From contig DATNMW010000096.1 in the NCBI GenBank assembly GCA_035602155.1, forward strand, positions 41,319-105,318: 64,000 bases of DNA. Direction: 5' to 3'. The notes under the pieces are model-generated. The model had not been told where the DNA came from. It searched no databases and saw only the letters and a list, made by a program, of their open reading frames with translations. Shown piece by piece: positions 10,042 through 61,122 of this stretch; positions within the stretch are counted from its first letter, which is position 1; every line of letters begins with the position of its first letter. Source of the DNA: Bryobacteraceae bacterium (lineage in GTDB: Bacteria > Acidobacteriota > Terriglobia > Bryobacterales > Bryobacteraceae). The translations under genes were made by a program, and so were the position numbers.

Positions 10042-10209
10042 ACTAGTGTACCAACCCGGCCATCACGCGCAGCGGACGAGGCGATCGGGCCTGAATCCCG
10101 GGTCCACGCGGAGCAGGCCGGTGAAGCTTTTCACCAGCAGGCCCGCGCCGATGGTCAGCTGCACGGAAACCGCCACTTCGCCGACGATCAACAGGTCGCG
10201 CGTTCGCCG

Positions 10210-10310
10210 GAGCGGGAAGGCGCCAGCGGGGCGGCGAGCGCTTTTTGGGGGTCGGTCATAATTCCGGATTTCAAAGTATCTTCTCGGATGTATCGACCAG
10301 CAGGCGCTAT
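10210..10310 (+). repeat. ~100-bp diverged copy of the TonB-type receptor 3-prime region (copy of 9134..9232) embedded in the permease pseudogene
   Basis: Direct alignment by eye: gagcgggaaggcgcc..gcggcgagcgcttt..cataattccggatttca.agtatcttctcggatgt.tcgacc.gcaggcgctat. It encodes GHNSGFQSIFSDVSTSRRY versus GHNSGFHSIFSDVSTGRRY in the receptor. Confidence 0.8.
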
Positions 10311-48458: not shown

Positions 48459-51200
48459 TTATCCGGCCGAGCGGGCCAGTGTCCCTAGCTCCCCTGCTCT
48501 TATGGTACGCCTATCCGGCGCGCCGCGGCGGTCCCGCGGTATTCCATCCAAGGCGGCATCCAGCAGGAACGGAGCGGATGTGCCTGCAACGAGTCGATGC
48601 AGAAAGAGGGCGATCCCCGACGCTCCCGTGCCGAAGTCGCAACTGATGCGGACCAGTTCATGCCCGGGGAATGCGATACCCGTTGGGCGTTGTATCCCAA
48701 ACAATGCGATTCCGGACGCCACCTTTTCGGCTTTTTCCCGATAGGCCGCGCCATTCGCCTTGTCGAAGGACTCCATGTCCAGCAGGAAGTCGCCGAGTCC
48801 GGCCAAGCCGAAGAAGCGTCCAGGATAGATGGTATACTTTCGATCGCAATCCACCGCGATACGCCGCAGCACGGACGCATATTCATCGTCGGCCAGCACC
48901 TTCTGATAGCGGAGGAGCGCCGTTCCGACGCCCGCGCCACCCCAGCGCCAGTAGGGCACGCGCGTGCGGGACGCCTGCGAGATCTTCCAGGTGAGGCCGC
49001 CATCGGCTGTTTCTACTCCATTGCCGATGTCGAAGTCCATGCCTCCCTTGCCCACCTCCAGATAACGCTCCTGGCCGGTGAGCCCGTATAGATACAGGAG
49101 GAAGAGGGCGACGCCGCTGGCTCCATGGGCCAGTCCGTAGGCGGTATCGTCGTCCCACGGCCAGGAAAATCCCACGTCTTCCTCGTGCTTGGAGCGAATC
49201 AGGTAGTCGCCAGCCTCGGCGGCCTTCGCCAGGTGGAACTCGTCCTGCGTGTGAACGAACGCCTTCAATTGCGCCAACCCCCAACCAGCGGCGCCATTAT
49301 ACAGATCCGGCGAATCGAAGCGCAGCGGGTGATCGGCGCCGGCGCGCAGCAGTTCAAGCCCGCGTTCCTCGCGGCCGATCTCGAGCAGGGTCCAGCCAAT
49401 TCCCGATGTGCCGGCATACAGGCCGGGAGGGAAGGCTTCAGCGGTTATCTGCTTGCCGCAAATCCAATCCATAATCGCGGGCGAAACCGTACCCGTGATC
49501 TGTTTCATGCAATATGCCACGCCGCACGCCCCGTGCGCGAGGCTCAGCGGATTAGTGGCGTAGAGGGCCGGATCCGCGGGAAACAGGCGGTCTACGCGGT
49601 CGTAGCTCGCCGTCCCGGCCACATATTCCATGGCGCTTTCAGCCATTTTTCGCAACTCCCCGTAGACCGGAGCCTGGTGCGCCGGCGGCGCGGAGGCATG
49701 GCTGTCGCTTTCCAGAATCTCGATAACGCGCGCCGGGGTGATCCGGTCCGCCCGCTGTACGGCCATCAATCCTTGAATGCACCGAGGGATGCTCGCGGGC
49801 AAACCAAGATCGCGGCTCAGGGCTTCCAGAAAGCGTCCGCACGCCCCGGTATCCAGCGCCATCATCCCGTTGATCGGCATCAGCGCGGCGAGCATGAGCG
49901 CGCCGAGTCCGAAGTAGTCGTCCTCGCGCTCGGAATACGAGCTGGCCAAATCCGCCGAGGCGAAGCCGGGGGTGAACAGGGGAGTAGGGGGGTCGATGCC
50001 GATCTCATGAGCGGCTTCAAAATCGATGAACTTGACGTCCTCTCCGTCATTGATGACGATCAAGTTGTAATGGGAAATGTCGGTGAAGACGATACCGCGG
50101 CTGTGCAGAATTTCGAGGTTGCGTGCGATGCGCGAGAACACCCGGCAAAACCTATCCACGAATTCCTGGGCATCGGCGGCGGTCGGGGCGGTGCGCAATG
50201 CGAGGGAGTGCGCGCTGTTGTAGAATCGAAGCAACGCGCCGTCGATAAACTCTTCCACCAGATAGCAATGCTCCCAATCGCTGAAGAAATCGAGCGGCTG
50301 AGCGGCGATTCCGGTATCCGCCAAGCGCGTCAGAAGGCGGTGCTCCTTCTTGAGCAAGTCCACACCGTCGGCGCCGTTCGGATAGACATTCGAGAGCGGC
50401 CGCGCCTCTTTGATCACCACTTCCCGTCCAGTCTGGGTATCGGTGGCCAGATAGACGCCGCCACTGCTCGAGAACGCCAAGGCGGAGTTGACCACATAGC
50501 GTCCGTTTTTCAACGTGTTCTCGCCACTCTTTAACGTGTCTTCGCCGGCGCTATCGCCCGCGGCGCCGCCCACAGGATCCGGAGCCCACTCATGAGAGAC
50601 ACTGTAGGGCATACGCCGGTCCCGGATGGCCGTCCCGTCGGGCGCCTGGATGGTAAGTACGCGCTCGCCCCGCGAGTTCAGTGCATCGGTCCGCATGATC
50701 CCGCCGTACCGATAGTACAGGACCCGGCTGTCCTTGTAGCGCTTGTCCGAGAGAATGTACGGTCCGCGAAAGCCTACTAGAACGTTGTGCAACTCCTCAA
50801 TCAGCGAGAGAAAGGCCGGCGTGTCGGCGGGATAGATGGTGATAAACTTTCCGGCTCCGCTGCGCGGCCAACGCTTGGAGTTCTGCAGATAGACGATGGT
50901 CTTATCCAACGCGAACTTGAACGCCGTCTTGCGAGCCGTGAGGACCGGAATCACCGTGGCGAGTATGGCGGCGGCATTGGTAACCGTTGCGGAGATATGA
51001 ATCTTCCAACCCTGCCGCGGCGGGGCAATCGACGGCTCGGAGCAGTGAGACCAGATGCCGTTGCGCTCCATGCTCCAGCCTTCCGGCAAAAAACGCCGCG
51101 CGACTTCAAGCAGGCCGCCCGCATCGGGTTCGTAGCAGTCCATGGGTTCGTAGAAATCCCTGGAGCCGAATAAGTACTGAAAGACCTGAATATTAGACAT
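48459..51200 (-). CDS. lanKC: Class III lanthionine synthetase (LanKC: phospho-Ser/Thr lyase - kinase - zinc-less LanC-like cyclase)
   Basis: 913-aa ORF. Lyase-domain motifs WKIHISAT and GKFITIYP. Kinase motifs GGVYLATD...[25 protein letters not shown] and KFIDFEAA. The C-terminal LanC-like repeats are [38 protein letters not shown] and GLAGLGDF, without the WCxG / CHG zinc ligands. Confidence 0.9.
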
Positions 51201-51321
51201 TTTGAAATAATTCCGTTTTACCGTGCATCCTCACTGGTTTCCATGGGAGAGCGAACCCCAGAATCGCGCCTTTGCCTTTGTGGAAAGGCCCGCGCCCTTC
51301 ACTCGCATCCGCTGGAGCAGA

Positions 51322-51365
51322 CCCGGCGGCGGGAGCTCGCTGGTTTGCTCCCGTCTGCCTCCGGG
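51322..51365 (-). terminator. Conserved GC-rich hairpin 24 nt downstream of lanA1 (candidate attenuator or processing structure)
   Basis: Minus-strand cccgg-aggcagac-GGGAGC-aaaccagcga-GCTCCC-gccg-ccggg. It is homologous to the structure after lanA2, with a compensatory stem change. Confidence 0.5.
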
Positions 51366-51388
51366 CCGATTCCTCATCGCGGTTGTCG

Positions 51389-51553
51389 TCAGTAACCGGC
51401 CGCGATATAACCGCCCATGGCCGCGAAACAGGCCGCCGCGCTGTTGGTGGAGCACGCACAATTGTGGGCGCTCGACGTGCTGTTGCCTACCTCTGCCATT
51501 GGACCGCTGTTCTGGTCGTCCGGCAACATTTGAAGTGCTAATACTCGATTCAT
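51389..51553 (-). CDS. lanA1: Class III lanthipeptide precursor peptide 1 (54 aa)
   Basis: MNRVLALQMLPDDQNSGPMAEVGNSTSSAHNCACSTNSAAACFAAMGGYIAAGY. RBS GGAGAA lies 5 nt upstream of the ATG. Leader VLALQ motif. The core has two S-x2-S-x3-C motifs. Confidence 0.85.
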   Translation of the reverse strand: MNRVLALQMLPDDQNSGPMAEVGNSTSSAHNCACSTNSAAACFAAMGGYIAAGY

Positions 51554-51583
51554 AATCGTTCTCCTTAGTCTTATCTGGGAAGA

Positions 51584-51627
51584 CCCGCCGGCGGGGGCAC
51601 ATTGTGCCGCCCCCGTCTGCTTCCGGG
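51584..51627 (-). terminator. Conserved GC-rich hairpin 24 nt downstream of lanA2
   Basis: Minus-strand cccgg-aagcagac-GGGGGC-ggcacaatgt-GCCCCC-gccggcggg. Same position and architecture as the hairpin after lanA1. Confidence 0.5.
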
Positions 51628-51651
51628 CCAATTTGCGGCTAACGGCCGTCG

Positions 51652-51816
51652 TTAATAACCGGCGGCGATGAAGCCGCCCATGGCCGCAAAACATGCCGCG
51701 GCGCTGTTGGTGGAGCAAGCGCAATTGTGGTCGCTCGACGTGCTGTTGGCCAGCTCCGCCATTGGGCCGCTGTTCTGGTCGTCCGCCAACATCTGAAGTG
51801 CTAATACTCGATTCAT
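51652..51816 (-). CDS. lanA2: Class III lanthipeptide precursor peptide 2 (54 aa)
   Basis: MNRVLALQMLADDQNSGPMAELANSTSSDHNCACSTNSAAACFAAMGGFIAAGY. RBS GGAGAA. Differs from lanA1 at 5 of 54 residues. The tandem unit period is 263 nt. Confidence 0.85.
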   Translation of the reverse strand: MNRVLALQMLADDQNSGPMAELANSTSSDHNCACSTNSAAACFAAMGGFIAAGY

Positions 51817-51842
51817 AATAGTTCTCCTTGTTTCTTCTTTTA

Positions 51843-51900: not shown

Positions 51901-51936
51901 TTGTTGCTTAGCAGTTTCGGCTGTTTCGCGAATTAC
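51901..51936 (+). repeat. Direct repeat copy 1 of a ~36-nt motif in the divergent lan intergenic region
   Basis: ttgttgcttagcagtttcggctgtttCGcgaatTact. The first 26 nt are identical to copy 2. Both copies are preceded ~23-28 nt upstream by ttataaca. Confidence 0.7.
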
Positions 51937-52330: not shown

Positions 52331-52366
52331 CTTGTTGCTTAGCAGTTTCGGCTGTTTAACGAATAC
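52331..52366 (+). repeat. Direct repeat copy 2 of the ~36-nt motif, ~85-120 nt upstream of the ABC exporter gene
   Basis: ttgttgcttagcagtttcggctgtttAAcgaat-act. Candidate promoter or regulator-binding site. Confidence 0.7.
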
Positions 52367-52483
52367 TGTAAGGTATTGCACAGAAACGGCCGCGGCCGGC
52401 ATGCTACCATTGTGACGTAAATAACAGTACCCAAACATCTTGATTGGCGAGTGCCAGCCTCGACGTTTTCGAGTGTTCCGACA

Positions 52484-54259
52484 ATGCCTGCGCACCGCTG
52501 GTTACTTAAAACTCTTCGGCCATTTCGCGCCAGTCAGTTGTTGATTACCTTCTCCCTGCTTTCGGCGGGACTGCTATCCTCGGTCGATCCTTTGATAATC
52601 AAATGGCTCATCGATCACGGCTTCCGCGGCGCTCGGGTGCGGTCTATTTTGATGGCGTTAGGTCTCTTTGTGCTGGCCTATTCAGTGCGGTTGACCTTAC
52701 TAATGATAGGTAACATGGCTGTCGCTGTAACCTGTCAGCGCGTGATGCTGCGTTTACGCCTGCAGCTTGCCACAAAGCTGACCCAGTGCGGGGCGGGGTA
52801 TTTCGACCGCCAACCGGTGGGCGATTTGGTTTACCGGCTGGAGGGCGACATCGAACAGGTCGGACATCTGGCCACGGACGTGCTCCCTTCGCTGCTGAGA
52901 GTGGCGGCCAGCGCCCTGTTAGTGGCCGGCATCATGGTGAGTATCGATCCGATGCTGGCTTGCGTGACACTTCCTTTCTTCCCGCTCTTTCTGGTGTTGC
53001 GCGCCCGCTTCCGGCCGAAGCTTGAGCGGGCGGCGGAAGCCACGCGAGACGTGGCCGGCCAGCGAAGCAGCTATTTGACCGAGTGGCTGGCAGGGGTCGT
53101 GCAGATACAGTTGCTGGGAGCGGAACGAACCTTCCTGCGCAAGCTCTTCGCGCTGTGCAGCAGTACGATCCGCGCCGCGGTAAGTCAGCGGAGAACGGAA
53201 CTGCTGTATGCCATCGGATCGATGGGCCTTATCGCGCTGGCCACAATCGCGGTTTTGGGCGCGGGTGCGGAGCGGGTTCTGACGCATGCGCTGACTCTGG
53301 GTGGGTATGTGGCGTTCTACACCTACCTGACCCGGCTGTTCGAGGCGCTGAGTGCCAGCGTAGAGACATATTGGCAGTTGAAGCGGGCTACCGGCAGCGT
53401 TCGCCGGCTGATGGAGCTGGAAGACGTGGACATCCCGATCGTGGACGTCAAGTCGGCTCCTTCGCTGCCCGCAGGCGAGGTCGGCGGCCTGGCGTGCACC
53501 GGAGTCGATTTCGGTTATCCGGCGGGACGAATCGTGATTCAGGGTGTATCCCTTCAGGTAAACCGCGGAGATCGCGTGGCCATAGTGGGCCGTAGCGGAA
53601 GCGGGAAGAGCACGCTGGCGAAGTTGCTGGTCCGGCTGTACGATGTAAGCGGAGGCGCGATTCTCCTCGACGGCGAGGACATCAGGGATCTGCGGCTGCG
53701 GAGTGTCCGCAGTTCGATCGCACTGGTGTCGCAGAACCCCACGTTGTTCGCCGGCACGCTGGCGGAGAATGCGCGGCTGGGAAGCCCGGACGCATCCCTC
53801 GAGGATATGAACCGGCTGGCAGTCCTGACGTGTTTCGATGAAGTCCTGCAAAGATTCCCGGACGGTTGGCGGCACGTGCTCGGGCCGGCCGGGGCCGGCT
53901 TGTCGGGCGGCGAGAAGAAGCGGCTGGCGCTGCTTCGGGGGCTCCTGCTGAATCGGGAGGTTCTGGTTCTGGACGAAGTGACCTCCGAGCTGGATCCGGC
54001 CGTCGAAAGGGTCCTGCTTTCCCACCTGGACGAATACGCCCATGACAAGGCCATCGTGCTGATCACACATCGCACCGCGGCGGCCCTTTGGGCCGACCGC
54101 ATCATCGCTCTCCAGGATGGGCGGGTGACGCGAGTGTGGCGACGTTCCGAGCTGGACGAGGACGACCCGCAACTCGAGCGGAAGCTTTGGGGCGAGGACC
54201 TGGCGATCCCCACGGAAGAGGCCTACCGGCCTGAAAGCGAACTGTGCTCAATTTTGTAA
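52484..54259 (+). CDS. ABC exporter, fused permease and ATPase (MdlB/MsbA-like), no peptidase domain
   Basis: The track ORF starts at 52451 (GTG); ATG at 52484. Six predicted TM helices, then Walker A GRSGSGKST, signature LSGGEKKRLAL and Walker B LVLDEVTSELD. Confidence 0.85.
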   Translation: MPAHRWLLKTLRPFRASQLLITFSLLSAGLLSSVDPLIIKWLIDHGFRGARVRSILMALGLFVLAYSVRLTLLMIGNMAVAVTCQRVMLRLRLQLATKLTQCGAGYFDRQPVGDLVYRLEGDIEQVGHLATDVLPSLLRVAASALLVAGIMVSIDPMLACVTLPFFPLFLVLRARFRPKLERAAEATRDVAGQRSSYLTEWLAGVVQIQLLGAERTFLRKLFALCSSTIRAAVSQRRTELLYAIGSMGLIALATIAVLGAGAERVLTHALTLGGYVAFYTYLTRLFEALSASVETYWQLKRATGSVRRLMELEDVDIPIVDVKSAPSLPAGEVGGLACTGVDFGYPAGRIVIQGVSLQVNRGDRVAIVGRSGSGKSTLAKLLVRLYDVSGGAILLDGEDIRDLRLRSVRSSIALVSQNPTLFAGTLAENARLGSPDASLEDMNRLAVLTCFDEVLQRFPDGWRHVLGPAGAGLSGGEKKRLALLRGLLLNREVLVLDEVTSELDPAVERVLLSHLDEYAHDKAIVLITHRTAAALWADRIIALQDGRVTRVWRRSELDEDDPQLERKLWGEDLAIPTEEAYRPESELCSIL

Positions 54260-54687
54260 CGGTCTTGCGCGTATTGCCCGGCGGCGCTTTGCTACTCAAG
54301 CATTCGGAGGATTCCCGGATCCAGAAAGTGCTGGCGCTGATCGCGGATGCGCCCGTACAGGAATGTGCTGGACTGGCGGGACAAGTACACCTCAGCACGA
54401 ACCGTCTGGTGCACTTATTCAGGCATGAGACCGGAGTGGGCTTAGGCTTGGTCCTGAGGGACGCCCGGCTGCGGTATTCGGCCCACCTCCTGTCTTCAGG
54501 GAAGGAGCCGGAAAAGGAGATCGCCTTTCTGTCCGGCTATCGGCACTTATCCAGCTTCGTCCGGGCCTTCACGCTACGGTACTTCGAGTCTCCCCGTTCC
54601 TACCGGCGCAATCCGCTTGTGCTGGTCATGTCCCCGCTCGGCGAGGGAGTCGTTGCGGAGGCCCTGGCGGTCGCCGCGCACGCCTAG
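54244..54687 (+). CDS. Short AraC-family HTH transcriptional regulator (DNA-binding domain only)
   Basis: IQKVLALIADAPVQECAGLAGQVHLSTNRLVHLFRHETGVG......IAFLSGYRHLSSFVRAFTLRYFESPRSYRR. It overlaps the ABC gene end by 16 nt. The start codon is uncertain. Confidence 0.7.
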   Translation: MLNFVTVLRVLPGGALLLKHSEDSRIQKVLALIADAPVQECAGLAGQVHLSTNRLVHLFRHETGVGLGLVLRDARLRYSAHLLSSGKEPEKEIAFLSGYRHLSSFVRAFTLRYFESPRSYRRNPLVLVMSPLGEGVVAEALAVAAHA

Positions 54688-54710: not shown

Positions 54711-56090
54711 ATGAGCGAACAAACCTGCTCTATTTACGGGGACGAAGCCGCCAACCATCCCGCGCCGGCCGGCAGGCTCCAAGTGCCCGTGGAGTATTTT
54801 CGGTTGCCCAACGGCCTGGCGGTTGCGCTCTCTCTCGACTGCAGCACTCCGGTGGCGGCTGTTACCGTCTATTATGGCGTCGGATTTCGCCGTGAGCCGC
54901 TGCATCGCGCCGGCTTTGCCCACCTTTTCGAGCACCTGATGTTTCAGGGGTCGCCCAGCCTCCCCAGATCGGAATTCATTCGACTTATCCACGAGTGCGG
55001 CGGCACCGTCAATGGGAGTACGCGCTTCGATTTCACCAGCTTCTATGAAGTGGTCCCGTCAAATGCCCTCCGTACGGTGTTGTGGGCCGAAGCAGACCGC
55101 ATGCGCGGCCTGGCTCTGACGCCGGAGAGCCTGGCCAACCAACAATCGGTCGTGTGCGCCGAAGTGGGCGCCAACATTCACAATCAGCCCTATGGCGGAT
55201 TTCCCTGGTTCGATGTACCTCAAACCGCGAACGTCAATCCGCACAATGCTCACAACTTTTACGGCGAGATTGAAGATATCACCGCCGCCACCCTGACGGA
55301 GGCGGAGGAATTCTTTCGGGAGTTTTACCGTCCCAACAACGCCGCCCTCGCGATCGTGGGCAACTTCGATCCGGCGGCGGTTCGGGAATGGATCGCCGGA
55401 TATTTCGGATCGATCCCGTCCGCGGCGGCGCCGGTTCCCTTCGACGTGAGCGAGCCGCGTCAACTGCGGGAGAGGTACGGGCGGAGGCTGGATCGTCTGG
55501 CGCCCAGTCCCGCCCTCGCCATCGCGTACCACATGCCGGACAGAAACACGGATGAGTACTTCGCGATGGGAGTGCTGGATCATCTTTTGCTTCAGGGAGG
55601 CGACAGCCTGTTTCAAAAGGAGCTGGTCAATCGCCGCGGGATGACCGATCTGGTTCGCGGCGGAATCAATATTCTGGGAACCATGTTCAACTACAACGGC
55701 CCCATGCTATGGACGGTCCACATGTTCCACGATCGCGACGTGCGCGCGGATGACATTCTGGAGGCCGTCGATGGGGTGGTGGCGGGCTTGACGGACGGGG
55801 AGGTTTGCCGGGAAACGCTTGATCGTGCTCTGGTCAAAATGCGTTCCACGCTCTACGACCAGATCGAATCCTCCCACGGCCTGGGTCTCGCCGATATGCT
55901 CGCGGCATTCGCGCTGTTCGACGGCTCTCCGGAACGGATCAATTCGTTGGACGCGCGCTTCCGGTCGGTCACGCCCGCATTGTTGCGCAGGACGGCTGCG
56001 GAGTGCCTTCGCAAAACCAATCGAACGGTCCTCGAAGTCGAGGCGCCGGCGGGTTCGGCTGTTAGACCAATGGGAAAGGAATGCAACTAA
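54711..56090 (+). CDS. M16-family (pitrilysin/insulinase-like) zinc peptidase, catalytic subunit
   Basis: 459-aa ORF with the inverted zinc motif HxxEH in GFAHLFEHLMFQGS and a downstream glutamate region (EFIRLIHECGGTVNGST). Confidence 0.85.
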   Translation: MSEQTCSIYGDEAANHPAPAGRLQVPVEYFRLPNGLAVALSLDCSTPVAAVTVYYGVGFRREPLHRAGFAHLFEHLMFQGSPSLPRSEFIRLIHECGGTVNGSTRFDFTSFYEVVPSNALRTVLWAEADRMRGLALTPESLANQQSVVCAEVGANIHNQPYGGFPWFDVPQTANVNPHNAHNFYGEIEDITAATLTEAEEFFREFYRPNNAALAIVGNFDPAAVREWIAGYFGSIPSAAAPVPFDVSEPRQLRERYGRRLDRLAPSPALAIAYHMPDRNTDEYFAMGVLDHLLLQGGDSLFQKELVNRRGMTDLVRGGINILGTMFNYNGPMLWTVHMFHDRDVRADDILEAVDGVVAGLTDGEVCRETLDRALVKMRSTLYDQIESSHGLGLADMLAAFALFDGSPERINSLDARFRSVTPALLRRTAAECLRKTNRTVLEVEAPAGSAVRPMGKECN

Positions 56091-57472
56091 TGAGCGCCCT
56101 CGCCTTCATACCCTCGCCGCCGGCCCGCCCGCCATTGCAGACCGTCTCTTGGGACCGGTTTGCGTTACCGGACCCGCAGTCGGTGCGCCTGTCCAACGGG
56201 CTCTCCGTCACGATGATTCAATGGGGTACGGTACCCAAGGTGCTTGTCAGCATGGTCCTGCGCGCGGGCCGGGCCGATGAGGGCAGGGAAAGACTGTGGC
56301 TTCGACGCCTGTTGGGCATGTGGATGATCGAAGGCACCCACAACCGCGGTGCGGATGCGGTGGCCGCCCAGGCGGCCACCATGGGTGGATCGATCGGACT
56401 GAGTTTCGGAGAAGATCTCATGGAGGTCTCCGCGGACGTGCTGACCGAGTGGGGGCCTGCGCTGGTCGAGTTGATGGCGGATGTCCTCCAGCAACCATTG
56501 TTTCCCGAGCGGGAGAGCGCCCGGTTGAAGCGCGCTCTGGTGCGCAAGCTCGAGATCCAGCAAAGCCAGGCTCGCGCCGTGGCGCATGAGGCGATTCGCC
56601 AGGTGCTCTATCCCGGCGGCTCCTACGGCTGTATTTTCCCGACCTCCGGCGCGCTGAATTCCTATGGCCGCACCGAGGTGATGGATTACTATGAATCGTG
56701 TTTCGTGGCGCGGCGCACGCACGTATGCGTGATTGGCCGCTTTGATGCCGCAAAGATGCTGGATGCGATTGAACGCAATCTCGGCGGATGGCGATCCGGT
56801 ACGGCACCCTTCGTGGAAAGGCCCGCGGAGTCGAAGGAGCCGGTTTGCCGGACCATCGACCGCCCAGGCTCAACCCAATCCACCGTGCTGATCGGTGTGC
56901 CGGTCGCGCCTCCAGGCAGTCCCGGCCGAGTCCCGCTGGAACTCGCGAATGCGATGCTCGGCGGCTCCTTCAGCTCTCGCATAACCTCGAATATCCGTGA
57001 AGACAAGGGCTACACCTACACGTGCGGTAGCAGCCTTCCCACCTGCTGCAGTACCTCTTTCTGGCTGGAAGTAGCCGATGTGGAACCGGGCGCCACGCGA
57101 GAGGCAATTCGGCTGATCCTGCATGAGGTGGACCGGTTCTGCCAGGAGCCTCCAACCGCGGACGAATTGATGCGCGCCAAAGCGTATACGTCCGGCGCGC
57201 TAGCGATCTCGATGTCGTCCCGGTCGGGACTGCTGAGCTGCCTGAAGTTCGACGATCTTTACCATCTTGGCTGGAGGTATCCGTCCACGTATCTGGCGCA
57301 GATCCGCGACGCGGATGTGCAGGACGTGTGCGCGGCTGCGGCACGCTATCTGAGGAGCGACAGGATGTCGACTGTCATCGTTGCGGATCTGAAGGAACTG
57401 GGGGAAGCGCCGTACATGCCGGCATCGCCACGATCGGTAGATGACGCGGGCCGTGCGGGCAATTTCACATAG
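56081..57472 (+). CDS. M16-family peptidase-like protein, non-catalytic subunit (HxxEH lost)
   Basis: 463-aa ORF. The equivalent position reads LRRLLGMWMIEGTHNRG, with no His-x-x-Glu-His. It overlaps the upstream M16 gene by 10 nt (ATGCAACTAATGA), suggesting translational coupling. Confidence 0.8.
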   Translation: MQLMSALAFIPSPPARPPLQTVSWDRFALPDPQSVRLSNGLSVTMIQWGTVPKVLVSMVLRAGRADEGRERLWLRRLLGMWMIEGTHNRGADAVAAQAATMGGSIGLSFGEDLMEVSADVLTEWGPALVELMADVLQQPLFPERESARLKRALVRKLEIQQSQARAVAHEAIRQVLYPGGSYGCIFPTSGALNSYGRTEVMDYYESCFVARRTHVCVIGRFDAAKMLDAIERNLGGWRSGTAPFVERPAESKEPVCRTIDRPGSTQSTVLIGVPVAPPGSPGRVPLELANAMLGGSFSSRITSNIREDKGYTYTCGSSLPTCCSTSFWLEVADVEPGATREAIRLILHEVDRFCQEPPTADELMRAKAYTSGALAISMSSRSGLLSCLKFDDLYHLGWRYPSTYLAQIRDADVQDVCAAAARYLRSDRMSTVIVADLKELGEAPYMPASPRSVDDAGRAGNFT

Positions 57473-57628
57473 TTATTCCATGGCCGAACACCCGACCGGC
57501 GCCCTCGTCGGCCTTTTGCGGAAAGCCTTGGTTTTCCGAACAAAAGAGCGGGTCCGCAGACCGGGGGGCTGACCCATAAGCGCTAACCTAACGATTTTAT
57601 GCCTTGGCCATGAATGGGCGGAACTGTT

Positions 57629-57863
57629 CTAAGCGATCACGGACGGGGGCGGCGCAGCGGTATGAAGCACTTCGTAAGGAAAGCGGCTCCGGATGTAGTG
57701 GTTGAAGTAGGCTCCCTTAGAGCCGGCGCGCAACAGATCGTGGTAGGTCCGGCGGGGAACGCCGGCGTACTGAAATGCGGCTCCGTCGCGGAAACTGCAC
57801 TTGAAGGATTGCTTTCCGGCGCTCGTAAGCCACTTGGGCCAGTGACGAAGATCGCACTGCCAT
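57629..57863 (-). pseudogene. KTSC-domain protein, 1-nt frameshift
   Basis: MAVRSSSLAQVAYERRKAILQVQF then shifts frame to RDGAAFQYAGVPRRTYHDLLRAGSKGAYFNHYIRSRFPYEVL. The total length of 235 nt is not a multiple of 3. Confidence 0.6.
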
Positions 57864-57920
57864 AGGATTCAGTTGCAATAGTTTCAAGATCGCGACAGGC
57901 ATTTTGTTGAACTCCGTAGT

Positions 57921-58290
57921 TCAATTCAGGCTTCTGTCCTGGACCGTTCGCTTGCGATGGCCCTCGGCCAATGCGGCAGCCAAGCGATTCCAACCATGCA
58001 GCACTTGGGTCGGCGGCAGGCTTGGTTCAATCGCATTCTGAATCTGGTGCAGCGCCAAACCGAACTCGCGCCATTCACTGCGTTGAAGCGTATCCCGGGA
58101 GAACGTAACCCCAGGGGAAAGTTCCCGTCCGACTCGAACTGACTTCTGTGTCAGTAAGGCCACGAGCAGCTTTCCGTATAGCCAAGCCCGCGAACTCTGG
58201 TCGTCGTATTTGGGCAGGTGCCCGAGTTGTGCCAGGCTCTTGAACCGTTTGAAGGTCAACTCTATTTGCCATCTCACCCGATACCACTCT
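57921..58290 (-). mobile_element. C-terminal remnant of an IS4-family DDE transposase
   Basis: ...REWYRVRWQIELTFKRFKSLAQLGHL... is the Y-x2-R-x3-E-x6-K signature region. The 5-prime part of the gene is absent. The fragment abuts the VWA pseudogene at ~58290. Confidence 0.7.
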
Positions 58291-59275
58291 CTAAGACTGG
58301 CCCCGCGGCCGGTACCCCGGGCGCGAGCGCACCAAGTACTTCTTCCCCACATCGGTCACAATCTCGACGGGAATCTTGCGGAGGCCTTCGCTCGGATTGG
58401 GCTGCGGATAGTAAGTCACCGTGTAGGAGTTACCTAAATCCTCGCGGATGAATTCAAAAGCCTCCACCTGCTTCTGCCAGATCTTGGCCCAATAGGCTTT
58501 GCCGCCGGTGCGCGTGGCGATGTGCCGGAAGACGCCGCTCGAAATGGAGTAGTGGGTCAATTTGCTTTGTGGGGCAGGTTGGCAACCTGCGGGCCGATTG
58601 TCAATCGGCCCAGTTTGCGCCGATTTCCAATCGGCGCGCAGGAGCATCCTGTCTTCATGGCCCTGCGGGCCACCAAATGCGATCAAAACCCTTGGAGGGC
58701 GGCAGGATTGCCCAATGCCACTTAGTTTTCGAGCGCTGTGCGAAACCAAAACATTTTCAAGCACTTATGTCTCTCCGCAGAAATAGGGTGACGCTCGGAC
58801 ACTTTGGCGAACCCCACGCCAATCGCTTGCTTCAATCGGGGTAGCCGGGATCCGCGGGTGCGCAATGACTTGCACTCATACTCAAGAAATAAGTGGCATT
58901 GGGCAGGATTGCCCGCCCTCCAAGGGTGGCTTCGACGGTGCCCCGCAAACTGCAACTGACCCACTACCCGAAACGGGGTCCTTGTTGACCTCGTTAGTGG
59001 AGATCATGTAGATGGGAATGCCTTCGTCCTCGGCCACCGCGCGGACGTCGTCGGGCGCGACCATGCTGGCATTGTCCGGCCCGTTCGAGAAGACGATCGC
59101 CACCTTGCGGCCACGCACTTTGGCCGCGTCGCGCAGCGTCAGCAGCAAGGTGTTGTAGACCGCCGTATCGTCTCCTGCCACGGATTTGCGCAACCCGCCG
59201 ATGGCATCGCCGCGGTCGCGCGCGAGCCTGGCAGCCCGGGAAAGACTGCGGCTGAGGAAGTTGACCGCTGTTCCA
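58291..59275 (-). pseudogene. Diverged duplicate of the 3-prime half of the VWA gene (copy of ~62266..62830), interrupted by a 421-bp element
   Basis: Collinear by eye with the intact gene: ...AIVFSNGPDNASMVAPDDVRAVAEDEGIPIYMISTNEVNKDP... and ...FRHIATRTGGKAYWAKIWQKQVEAFEFIREDLGNSYTVTYYPQPNPSEGLRKIPVEIVTDVGKKYLVRSRPGYRPRG. There is no 5-prime half. Confidence 0.85.
58548..58968. mobile_element. MITE-like non-autonomous element (421 bp) with terminal inverted repeats and 8-bp target duplication
   Basis: The left end is aGTAGTGGGTCAATTTGC and the right end is GCAACTGACCCACTACc. The flanks are cgaaatgg / cgaaacgg. The uninterrupted paralog at 62514..62530 reads ...gctcgaaatgggatcc.... There is no ORF of transposase size. 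An internal 36-nt inverted pair lies at 58689..58724 and 58890..58925. Confidence 0.75.
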
Positions 59276-59482
59276 GTGTTGGACGCGGCGAACTGGCATT
59301 GACGCTAGGACCGGTGAACCGAGGTGTAAGGGCGGACGCTACCTTTATAGGCGGACTGCTACTGGCCGGCGGGTGCCTGGCGGTGGTCGGAGTCTAGAGC
59401 GAATGGATGCCAGTGCGCGCGGCGATGCGGGCCATCGGGAACTGCCGACGGCCTAAAAGGCGACAGAATGGGCGGGAGGGTT

Positions 59483-60172
59483 ATGCCAATCGTCCTAACC
59501 GAAATACCGGCAGCGGCTGTTCCCCACGTTCCGCCCCGAAAGCGATGGACTCGCGCCGAGTGCGCAACTCTGGAGGCGTCCGGTCTCCTGGATCAGGAAA
59601 GCCTGGAGCTTGTGGAAGGGGAGTTGATCGGCAAAACGGAGAAGAAACGCCCGCACGTGGACTCCTTCACCCTGCTACAGGAGTGGTTGGCGCAAGTCTT
59701 TGGATTTCGCTCAGTGAACGTAGAGGCGCCCATTGACGTGGCCCCTGAGGACAATCCTACCAACGAACCGGTGCCCGATCTTATCGTCCTACCGCAAGAG
59801 CGGCCGCGTTTCACATCCAACCCGAGGGCGCTGGATTTGCGGCTCGGAGTTGAGATAGCCGATACCAGCCTTAGCTTCGATCTCAAGGTTAAAGTCCCGC
59901 TTTACGCGAGGGCCGGGGTGCGCGAATATTGGGTCCTGGACGTGGCTGGCCACCGGTTGCTGGTGCACAGGAATCCGCAATCCGTAACGTATATGGACGT
60001 GGCCGCTTATAGCGCACGAGAGCGTGTCGCCGCTTGCTCCGCCGCGGGAACAGTTCCGCGTGGCGGATGCCTTCCAAGTCCTATAGCGGCGGTCGCCCGT
60101 ATCCGCCGTTGCCCCCGAAACGCGAACGCTAAACAGCACCGATCTGAAGCCAAATCCAATCGCGCGGCATGA
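59483..60172 (+). pseudogene. Uma2-family (DUF820) endonuclease, C-terminus altered by a 2-nt deletion
   Basis: MPIVLTEIPAAAVPHVPPRKRWTRAECATLEASGLLDQESLELVEGELI...PDLIVL...EIADTSLSFDLKVKVPLYARAGVREYWVLDV. After ~60014 the frame departs from copy 2 (agcgcacgag versus agcgagcacgag) and reads through to 60172. Confidence 0.7.
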
Positions 60173-60366
60173 TAAACAAGAACGTGATGTCGCCATAGAG
60201 GCTACGGGCTCAAGAGCACCTGAGGAAAGCCGAAACTGGCCCAAAACCGAAGGTCGCGCCGACCGCGCGGCTGCCAGGAAATACTGCTCCGCAGTTCCCG
60301 CGAGTTGGGTGTCTCCGGTGGAGGCATGCGGCCCGAAAAAAGGCGATAGAATAGGCGGGAGGGGTC

Positions 60367-60972
60367 ATGCCAATCGCCCTAACCGAAATACCGGCGCCGG
60401 TTGCTCCGCCGGATCCGCCTCGCAAGCGATGGACTCGCGCGGAGTGCGCCACTTTGGAGGCATCCGGTCTCCTGGATCAGGAGAGCCTGGAGCTTGTAGA
60501 AGGGGAATTGATCAGCAAGATGGGGAAGAAACGGCCTCACGTGAATTCATTCACCCGGCTGCAAGAGTGGCTGGTGCAAGTCTTCGGATGGGGCTTTGTG
60601 AATGCAGAGGCGCCCATTGATGTAGCCCCTGAGGACAACCCCACCAACGAGCCGGTACCCGACCTCATCGTGCTGCGGCAAGATGACTCGCATTTCACAT
60701 CGAACCCGCAACCCCAGGATCTGCGGCTCGTCGTGGAGATAGCCGATACCAGCCTTAGCTTCGATCTCAAGGTTAAGGCCGCGCTTTACGCGAGGGCCGG
60801 TGTGATCGAATATTGGGTCCTCGACGTAGCCGGCCGTCGGCTGCTGGTCCACCGGAATCCGCAATCGGGAAAGTATGCGGACGTGGCTGCTTATAGCGAG
60901 CACGAGAGCGTGTCGCCGCTGGCTGCGCCGGAGGAACAGTTCCGCGTGGCGGATGCCTTCCAAGTCCTTTAG
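60367..60972 (+). CDS. Uma2-family (DUF820) endonuclease
   Basis: 201-aa ORF with the PD-(D/E)xK-like core PDLIVL...VVEIADTSLSFDLKVKAALYARAGVIEYWVLDV. It is a tandem paralog of the upstream copy. Confidence 0.85.
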   Translation: MPIALTEIPAPVAPPDPPRKRWTRAECATLEASGLLDQESLELVEGELISKMGKKRPHVNSFTRLQEWLVQVFGWGFVNAEAPIDVAPEDNPTNEPVPDLIVLRQDDSHFTSNPQPQDLRLVVEIADTSLSFDLKVKAALYARAGVIEYWVLDVAGRRLLVHRNPQSGKYADVAAYSEHESVSPLAAPEEQFRVADAFQVL

Positions 60973-61122
60973 GAACGTTCGCCGGAATCCGCGGCACGGC
61001 CTCCGTCCGCCGCGAACGCTAAACTGCCCGATCTTGAAGCCCAAATTCCAATGGCGCCGGCATGATAAACCAGAGCGTGACGTAGCCAGAAAGAATCCCG
61101 CTTTGCCCCAAAACAACGCCAC

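Follow-up and report, generated by a model that had tools for sequence, protein, structure and literature searches.

To our knowledge, and according to the literature that we searched, the class III lanthipeptides characterised so far originate from Actinobacteria and Firmicutes. That literature, of which our coverage was incomplete, contained no characterised class III product from the Gram-negative phyla discussed below, and what it says of class III lanthipeptides in Proteobacteria or Acidobacteriota amounts to mentions in genome-mining work. A reference point for the present locus is labyrinthopeptin A2 (LabA2/LabKC) of the actinomycete Actinomadura namibiensis, whose precursor (printed as MASILELQNLDVEHARGENRSDWSLWECCSTGSLFACC) joins an ILELQ-type leader motif to a core with two S-x2-S-x3-C motifs, each followed by a further Cys; these two extra residues, Cys9 and Cys18, form a disulfide, and the peptide ends at Cys18. 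SapB/AmfS of Streptomyces (RamS/RamC) also combines a double S-x2-S-x3-C core with an LxLQ leader, a RamC-type N-terminal synthetase domain, and a hydrophobic product, but SapB has neither an inter-ring Cys nor a tail. In the paenithopeptin and bacinapeptin systems of Firmicutes, an M16B peptidase heterodimer, PttP1/PttP2, was shown experimentally to remove class III leaders (PMC8960859).

Here, we examined a 64,000-nt stretch of contig DATNMW010000096.1 (positions 41,319 to 105,318; hereafter "the window") from a Bryobacteraceae bacterium (assembly GCA_035602155.1), in which two similar open reading frames (ORFs) of 54 amino acids lie upstream of a gene for a class III lanthionine synthetase (LanKC). 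Judged from the sequence, the two ORFs are very probably functional, tandem-duplicated precursors (LanA1 and LanA2, here copies A and B) in the class III lanthipeptide cluster of a soil acidobacterium. Like LabA2, the encoded peptides have an ILELQ-type leader motif, a three-domain LanKC encoded in the adjoining gene, and two S-x2-S-x3-C motifs in a ring-Cys-ring layout, in which the second motif begins S-T-x-S and is directly preceded by a Cys. Unlike LabA2, they have a single extra Cys, with an Ala between it and Cys8, a Phe after Cys18, and a 12-residue hydrophobic tail; moreover, their host is a Gram-negative acidobacterium, and their LanKC is far from the characterised enzymes. The layout that defines the labyrinthopeptins, with each motif followed by a Cys and a Cys9–Cys18 disulfide, is therefore not found in the window. 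A preliminary description of the ORFs had drawn the labyrinthopeptin analogy; the LabA2 core that it gave agrees with the printed precursor, and alignment extends the analogy to homology, since the LabA2 precursor aligns end to end with the profile of the precursor family described below (hhalign probability 89%, E-value 2e-6, 37 columns, a distant relationship). BLASTP gives an E-value of 0.004 and 36% identity over 42 columns. In the profile alignment, core Cys10 falls on LabA2 Cys9, and a Phe stands at the place of the LabA2 disulfide partner Cys18. By these alignments, the window peptides are distant labyrinthopeptin homologues that stand outside the two-Cys disulfide layout.

Twin precursor genes and their synthetase

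Both precursor ORFs begin with ATG, and a strong Shine-Dalgarno sequence (AAGGAGAAC) lies a few bases upstream of each (Table 1). The peptides share the leader MNRVLALQ..., the core STSS(D/A)HNC-A-C-STNSAAAC, and the tail FAAMGG(F/Y)IAAGY. Their limits and translations agree exactly with those reported in the preliminary description, and the five substitutions that it listed between the copies (P/A10, V/L21, G/A22, A/D28, and Y/F48) are all seen in the translations; the mature parts of the two congeners would differ at core residue 5 (Asp or Ala) and at one tail residue (Phe or Tyr). When the window was translated in six frames, single S-x2-S-x3-C motifs occurred 55 times in 128 k residues, whereas the double motif (with a gap of 0–6 residues) occurred twice, once in each precursor ORF. 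The two exact motifs previously pointed out in each peptide are thus the only double motifs in the window, and they conform to the S-x2-S-x2-5-C pattern of class III cores.

Copies A and B are parts of a 263-nt tandem duplication. Their coding parts differ at 18 nucleotides, with 12 synonymous and five non-synonymous codon differences, giving a dS of 0.51, a dN of 0.040, and a dN/dS of 0.08 by the Nei-Gojobori method; within the tail, six nucleotide changes produce one amino acid change. The low dN/dS indicates a selected coding sequence rather than a chance one, and the divergence values together suggest an old duplication, both copies of which have been retained under strong purifying selection. 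The locus is identical in at least four soil metagenome assemblies. An exact-sequence look-up listed both peptides from JGI, ENA, and Logan, with no NCBI entry. As every neighbouring protein that was checked does have one, the NCBI record seems to lack gene calls for the precursors. Of class III precursors in general, 55% are unannotated in databases (PMC7268733). Fragments of the core sequence were not printed in any paper of the literature searched (coverage incomplete).

The lanKC gene starts 188 nt downstream of copy B on the same strand and encodes a single synthetase with the three expected domains, RamC_N (1e-58), Pkinase, and LANC_like, in Pfam. The protein passes the NCBIfam class III equivalog (749.8 bits, cutoff 575) and stays under the cutoff of the class IV model (559.5 bits, cutoff 650). 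Its kinase and lyase motifs sit on columns that are invariant across 24 homologues, while the cyclase region contains no invariant Cys and one near-invariant Cys (C854) in the same alignment. With a single near-invariant Cys, a Cys-Cys-His zinc site cannot be conserved, and both the model scores and the column conservation therefore indicate a class III-type cyclase rather than that of a class IV LanL. All structurally solved LanKCs are only distant relatives of this enzyme. An 18-nt tandem duplication at 51126-51161, in the 5′ end of lanKC, encodes a repeated hexapeptide; because the equivalent segment, EFYEPxDRYxP, is conserved in homologues, it is an old feature of the LanKC N-terminus.

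The precursors themselves score above the cutoff of the NCBIfam model lanthi_III_a (NF038154; 23.6 bits for A and 26.4 bits for B, cutoff 22), although by a narrow margin and over residues 1–32 only, that is, the leader and first ring. Class III enzymes require an ILELQ leader motif (PMC8341899), and the window leaders contain V4-L5-A6-L7-Q8, which fits the (I/L/V)(L/F)-x-LQ recognition motif. This sequence had initially been considered a loose fit, but VLALQ proved to be a common variant in the enzyme clade (also found in loci L007, L010, L018, L028, L042, L058, and L079; loci are numbered L and family precursors P throughout), and L5, L7, and Q8 are invariant in the precursor family. Taken together, by every feature that can be tested from sequence, the system is a class III lanthipeptide system, as had been proposed.

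Two narrower assignments were rejected. Membership of class III-c was not supported, because lanthi_III_c matched below its cutoff only, and the STxSNxC or TITTT features that III-c substrates bear according to the TherKC paper were not seen. Likewise, His-to-butyrine (noursin-type) or avionin chemistry is unsupported, given the lack of a decarboxylase gene, a His6 that varies across the family, and a Cys that does not stand at the C-terminus.

A precursor family across Gram-negative phyla

A single-sequence search with precursor B found no match except itself, and a genome-contig scan with LanKC alone gave no matches, whereas an alignment query did. Mining 80 LanKC loci for precursors revealed twin precursors in Duganella sp. 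Root336D2 with a core nearly the same as that of the window. A four-sequence profile then retrieved 14 relatives, and an exhaustive profile search of 1.84 billion representative proteins yielded 77 relatives at an E-value of ≤1e-3. These come from Acidobacteriota, Gemmatimonadota-type, and Beta- and Gammaproteobacteria, with Duganella, Lysobacter sp. K5869, and Idiomarina among the named hosts, and share the pattern S-[ST]-[S/C]-S-x3-C-x(1-2)-C-S-[ST]-x-S-x3-C followed by a tail. The nearest LanKC relatives (approximately 50% identity), from Thermoanaerobaculia, Gemmatimonadaceae, Longimicrobiales, and Lysobacter, are accompanied by precursors of the same architecture.

In a 19-member alignment, M1, R3, L5, L7, and Q8 of the leader and C34, S35, S38, and C42 of the core are invariant, and S25, S28, C32, and T36 are conserved in at least 90% of members. 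The ring Ser and Cys residues are thus conserved in homologous loci, the point on which the preliminary description had staked its reading. That description had noted the unpaired Cys and the hydrophobic tail as differences from labyrinthopeptin A2; neither is peculiar to this locus, since both are conserved family features, and among the Cys residues conservation is highest at the "unpaired" one (C34, core Cys10). In most members the tail ends in a hydrophobic-hydrophobic-Ala-hydrophobic motif, in many cases with acidic residues before it. A variant with the end I-A-(A/P)-G-(Y/F) is common to the window and P0130, and the window tail has no acidic residue. The conserved C-terminal tail is part of a family-wide module, whose candidate roles are insertion into the membrane and recognition by the machinery for export or processing.

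The 18-residue core of the metagenomic precursor P0130 is identical to that of copy A. Its locus (L081) is surrounded by genes for integrases, ParA/ParB, ArdC, and a PrlF/YhaV toxin-antitoxin pair, and is probably part of an integrative or conjugative element, a setting consistent with horizontal spread of the family across phyla. In locus L088, a third precursor (MSRILNLQKVLPFHPDEDTGGGSTSSESGACHCSTPSVDACFMGNDLIAI, positions 10158-10310) lies uncalled between the two called ones; in its first ring, the spacing from Ser to Cys is four residues. Some relatives carry Cys rather than Ser at core position 3, and Cys3-type members (Idiomarina P0135 and P0179) pass NCBIfam lanthi_III_b, while the closest Ser3-type relatives (P0130, P0125, P0123, and P0169) fall below every curated NCBIfam cutoff. 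Since these models label some relatives as class III lanthipeptides, the family is not invisible to databases; lanthi_III_a and lanthi_III_b are bioinformatic families for which we know of no product.

The extra cysteine, the predicted ring system, and the tail

Position 3 of the core was compared across 73 parsed family members, in which it is Ser in 42, Cys in 28, and another residue in three. The spacer between ring Cys8 and the extra Cys is one residue long in all Ser3 members (42/42) and two residues long in most Cys3 members (24/28), and P0169 (SSCSDHNCACSTNSAAAC) and P0175 illustrate the Ser-to-Cys switch within otherwise window-like cores. A position that is limited to cross-linkable residues and coupled to the geometry near an invariant Cys is best explained by bonding. 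We therefore infer from the family sequences that position 3 and Cys10 would be cross-linked, by a thioether (lanthionine) between dehydroalanine (Dha) 3 and Cys10 in the Ser3 forms and by a disulfide in the Cys3 forms. With such an intramolecular partner at position 3, the intermolecular disulfide that the preliminary description had raised appears less likely.

Several observations weigh against this reading. The covariation between position 3 and Cys10 is partly phylogenetic, in that the Ser3 and Cys3 types correspond in part to clades; in L091, Ser3 occurs together with a two-residue spacer; P0202 and P0223 carry Cys3 without an extra Cys; and P0206 has Ala3. In addition, S1-x2-S4-x5-C10 is also a legal Sx2Sx2-5C motif, which makes the assignment of the N-terminal ring ambiguous. 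For the rings in general, sequence cannot tell labionin from lanthionine (PMC7268733). A wider interpretation is put forward only tentatively, namely that the ring topology of the family is unlike that of any characterised class III lanthipeptide, with a third bridge from Cys10 to position 3 across the first labionin or lanthionine ring, that the chemistry of this bridge has been swapped several times, and that the C-terminal hydrophobic motif is a signal for handling by the Gram-negative envelope. The envelope machinery would then consist of the ATP-binding cassette (ABC) exporter and a TonB-dependent-receptor-like protein in Proteobacteria, and of a permease of the ADOP (acidobacterial duplicated orphan permease) family in Acidobacteriota.

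Alternatively, each motif may give one lanthionine and a leftover dehydroalanine, so that the product would be a SapB-like surface-active or morphogenetic amphiphile rather than a labyrinthopeptin-like peptide. Depending on the class III peptide, the same motif is known to become either lanthionine or labionin (PMC7268733; PMC8341899), and the product, as read from the sequence, would be nearly without charge and very hydrophobic. Weak matches to the SapB/AmfS model (NF033212, cutoff 25 bits) come from copy B and from many relatives, some of which (P0135 and P0171) exceed the cutoff; however, copy B reaches 17.5 bits and copy A does not match, and the profile alignment with LabA2 spans both rings and the inter-ring Cys. 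We consider a SapB-like product possible but doubtful.

It is also conceivable that Cys10 takes part in no intramolecular thioether and is instead a free thiol, for example, a metal ligand together with His6, or forms an intermolecular disulfide in homodimers or A-B heterodimers. The number of Cys residues in the core is odd, no Cys follows ring 2 at the place of the LabA2 disulfide partner, and two congeners are encoded together in the window, L006, L088, and L090. For a metal ligand, His6-Asn7 is common beside the Cys pair, and in four proteobacterial loci the exporter gene is succeeded by one for a TonB-dependent-receptor-like protein, an arrangement also found in some metallophore systems. 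Nevertheless, neither a thiol nor a dimer explains why position 3 is restricted to Ser or Cys and covaries with the spacer; His6 is not conserved across the family, in which GNG, YEG, and WAG variants occur; and many family loci encode a single precursor. A free or dimer-forming Cys10 is therefore a minority view in our assessment, and a bond between Cys10 and position 3 remains the preferred reading.

The tail may alternatively lie outside the mature peptide, as a follower or recognition sequence at the C-terminus that is removed or serves only export or processing. Most of the 77 relatives conserve the end motif but vary in the stretch from ring 2 to that motif, and peptidases of various families are encoded near several loci. 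P0185, P0194, P0220, and P0224 have no tail at all, suggesting that the ring system can stand alone. On the other hand, the window tail is diverged, lacks the acidic residue, and has an extra Gly-Tyr in common with P0130 only, which would be odd for a strict tag, and the single amino acid change among six nucleotide changes in the twin tails reflects selection and does not indicate its purpose. Furthermore, follower peptides are not known to us from any characterised class III system. A tail outside the mature peptide thus seems unlikely, and we retain the tail as part of a product of approximately 2.7 kDa that is predicted to be polycyclic, almost uncharged, and very hydrophobic, for which a membrane-active role is our best guess.

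Finally, the failure of a consensus scan to find a promoter and the missing NCBI entries might point to remnants of a duplicated gene, silent or decaying, from which no peptide is made. This reading is very improbable in view of the purifying selection on two intact copies with Shine-Dalgarno sites, the intact enzyme and accessory genes, the conservation of the core across phyla, and the frequency with which class III precursors go unannotated.

Neighbouring genes, proposed pathway, and significance

The features of the cluster are collected in Table 1. Divergently from the precursors, across a 634-nt intergenic region, runs an operon of the ABC exporter, an AraC-type regulator, and two translationally coupled M16 peptidase genes. 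Other gene callers start the exporter at an ATG at 52484 (591 aa). The ADOP permease gene comes next after lanKC on the same strand.

Table 1. Positions of the cluster features (in the window unless a locus is named) and the basis of their assignment
Feature	Position	Strand	Basis or remark
ADOP-family duplicated MacB/FtsX-type permease, 811 aa	45916-48351	minus	Putative immunity or efflux component
LanKC, class III lanthionine synthetase, 913 aa	48459-51200	minus	RamC_N lyase, Ser/Thr kinase, and LanC-like cyclase; Pfam, NCBIfam
GC-rich hairpin after precursor B, before lanKC	51319-51371	minus	Putative attenuator or stabiliser
Precursor gene B (lanA2), 54 aa	51389-51553	minus	Leader MNRVLALQMLPDDQNSGPMAEVGN, core STSSAHNCACSTNSAAAC, tail FAAMGGYIAAGY
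Shine-Dalgarno AAGGAGAAC of precursor B	51558-51566	minus	Read directly
GC-rich hairpin after precursor A (duplicated unit D2)	51581-51633	minus	Putative transcript-stabilising or attenuating element
Precursor gene A (lanA1), 54 aa	51652-51816	minus	Leader MNRVLALQMLADDQNSGPMAELAN, core STSSDHNCACSTNSAAAC, tail FAAMGGFIAAGY
Shine-Dalgarno AAGGAGAAC of precursor A	51821-51829	minus	Read directly
33-nt direct repeat, copy 1	51901-51933	plus	Approximately 85 nt upstream of precursor A; candidate operator
33-nt direct repeat, copy 2	52332-52364	plus	Approximately 87 nt upstream of the ABC exporter start; candidate operator
ABC exporter (transmembrane and ATPase domains, without C39 peptidase domain)	52451-54259	plus	Domain search
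AraC-type helix-turn-helix regulator	54244-54687	plus	PF12833; 16-nt overlap with the end of the ABC gene
M16B peptidase, active subunit	54711-56090	plus	HLFEH at residues 71-75; putative leader peptidase
M16B peptidase, inactive subunit	56081-57472	plus	No HxxEH; R306-x6-Y313; 10-nt overlap with the active-subunit gene
TonB-dependent-receptor-like genes of other family loci	L081 14649-17356, L087 14693-16927, L088 17471-19672, L089 11471-13435

The adjacent M16 genes have the marks of a PttP1/PttP2-type pair, with HxxEH in one product and the R/Y pair in the other. For the first subunit, PDB 3amj_C, the "zinc peptidase active subunit", is among the top matches (2.8e-29), and for the second the best PDB match is 3amj_B, the "zinc peptidase inactive subunit"; PttP1/PttP2 and the window pair both resemble these proteins, Sph2681/Sph2682. 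The two systems share a class III cluster with a heteromeric M16B peptidase (PMC8960859) but differ in that PttP1/PttP2 occur in Firmicutes beside a core peptide unrelated to that of the window, and in that the window pair is a prediction from sequence. Co-location, the argument for leader cleavage by the pair, is seen in the window, Duganella L006, L056, and L010. In Duganella, the closest cultured member of the family, a fused 931-aa M16 protein starts 11 nt after the ABC exporter, and this direct succession supports leader removal by the M16B proteins. As a point to the contrary, five of the seven family loci that we inspected lack the pair, which thus does not belong to the pathway universally.

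All family loci that we inspected have an ABC exporter after LanKC. Of the 12 Acidobacteriota loci retrieved in the genome scan, 10 encode ADOP homologues beside LanKC, within approximately 6 kb; loci with ADOP-type or related permeases comprise L002, L003, L005, L007, L009, L011, L028, L033, L038, L045, L091, and L092, the last two likewise with duplicated MacB/FtsX-type permeases beside LanKC. This recurrent siting suggests that the ADOP family has a role in lanthipeptide immunity or export. In four proteobacterial family loci (Table 1), a TonB-dependent-receptor-like outer-membrane protein is encoded after or just beyond the ABC exporter; such proteins may provide outer-membrane passage or uptake of the peptide. 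The window cluster has no adjacent gene of this kind. Two betaproteobacterial family clusters have LuxI/LuxR-type quorum-sensing genes directly beside them (L088 14931-17365 and L006 13926-14645), which suggests acyl-homoserine-lactone control of production there, with the AraC-type regulator in its place in the window.

As for control signals, the two copies of a 33-nt direct repeat in the divergent region are 94% identical, with the first 26 nt exact. The repeat occurs nowhere else in the window, and elsewhere only in copies of this locus, and is a candidate shared operator for the AraC-type regulator. The GC-rich hairpin after precursor B has a folding energy of −42.8 kcal/mol and a z-score of −2.98. 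The inner stems of the two hairpins differ on both arms in a compensatory-looking manner (as read from the D2 sequences, not pair-counted), and five of eight other family loci have perfect hairpins of 9–16 bp, unrelated in sequence, after the precursor. Two results weigh against the overall reading of the cluster: the hairpin after precursor A is no better than shuffled sequences (z = −0.36), and consensus scans found no promoter or canonical terminator around the genes. Acidobacterial promoters need not match the sigma-70 consensus, a point against reading the genes as relics.

A 6PGDH-like oxidoreductase and a 259-aa ORF nearby were considered as tailoring enzymes and excluded, since neither was detected in the other loci inspected. 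Beyond the M16 genes, the region 57600-61000 contains small ORFs that match no family, a fragment weakly resembling a DDE transposase, and two genes for Uma2-family endonucleases, the latter taken from gene calls for the identical contigs L082 and L083; it may mark the edge of the cluster. The remainder of the window is ordinary chromosome. Rfam and tRNA scans of the window gave no matches, and hence no taxonomic marker, but the aconitase encoded in the window clusters at 90% identity or more with a protein named as Bryobacteraceae, and the ADOP, CarboxypepD_reg-OMP, and DUF1552/1592 genes are in keeping with such a host.

By established class III biochemistry (PMC8341899), LanKC would dock on the N-terminal (V/I)L-x-LQ motif of the leader. 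It would then phosphorylate core Ser/Thr residues with a nucleoside triphosphate, its lyase domain would eliminate the phosphate to give Dha or dehydrobutyrine, and its metal-independent cyclase would close the rings from the C- to the N-terminus. In this order, Cys18 would add to Dha14 and then to Dha11, and Cys8 to Dha4 and then to Dha1, resulting in two labionin (or lanthionine) ring systems. Core Cys10 would pair with position 3 as the Dha3–Cys10 thioether suggested by the family covariation. Going by the gene set, the M16B heterodimer, which is apparently cytoplasmic because it has no obvious signal peptide, would remove the leader; the ABC exporter would secrete the almost uncharged, very hydrophobic product of approximately 30 residues; and the ADOP permease would give self-protection or efflux. 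The hairpins would raise the ratio of precursor to enzyme transcript.

The cluster, as far as its sequence can be read, is a genuine class III cluster of standard logic. Because this biosynthetic logic is that of the textbook, the locus extends known biology and opens no new kind, and we regard it as a moderately interesting lead with structural predictions, not an extraordinary one. The locus provides a complete and compact cluster, one that can be cloned, from Acidobacteriota, a phylum that is dominant in soil but chemically almost unexplored. It also anchors a family that comprises at least 77 sequence clusters, spans Gram-negative phyla, and has kept its 18-residue core almost frozen; such a core implies a conserved target or function and horizontal spread. 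The family predicts a third cross-link and, in addition, which envelope proteins would handle a lanthipeptide in a diderm cell, and the "orphan" ADOP permease family would also gain its first functional context.

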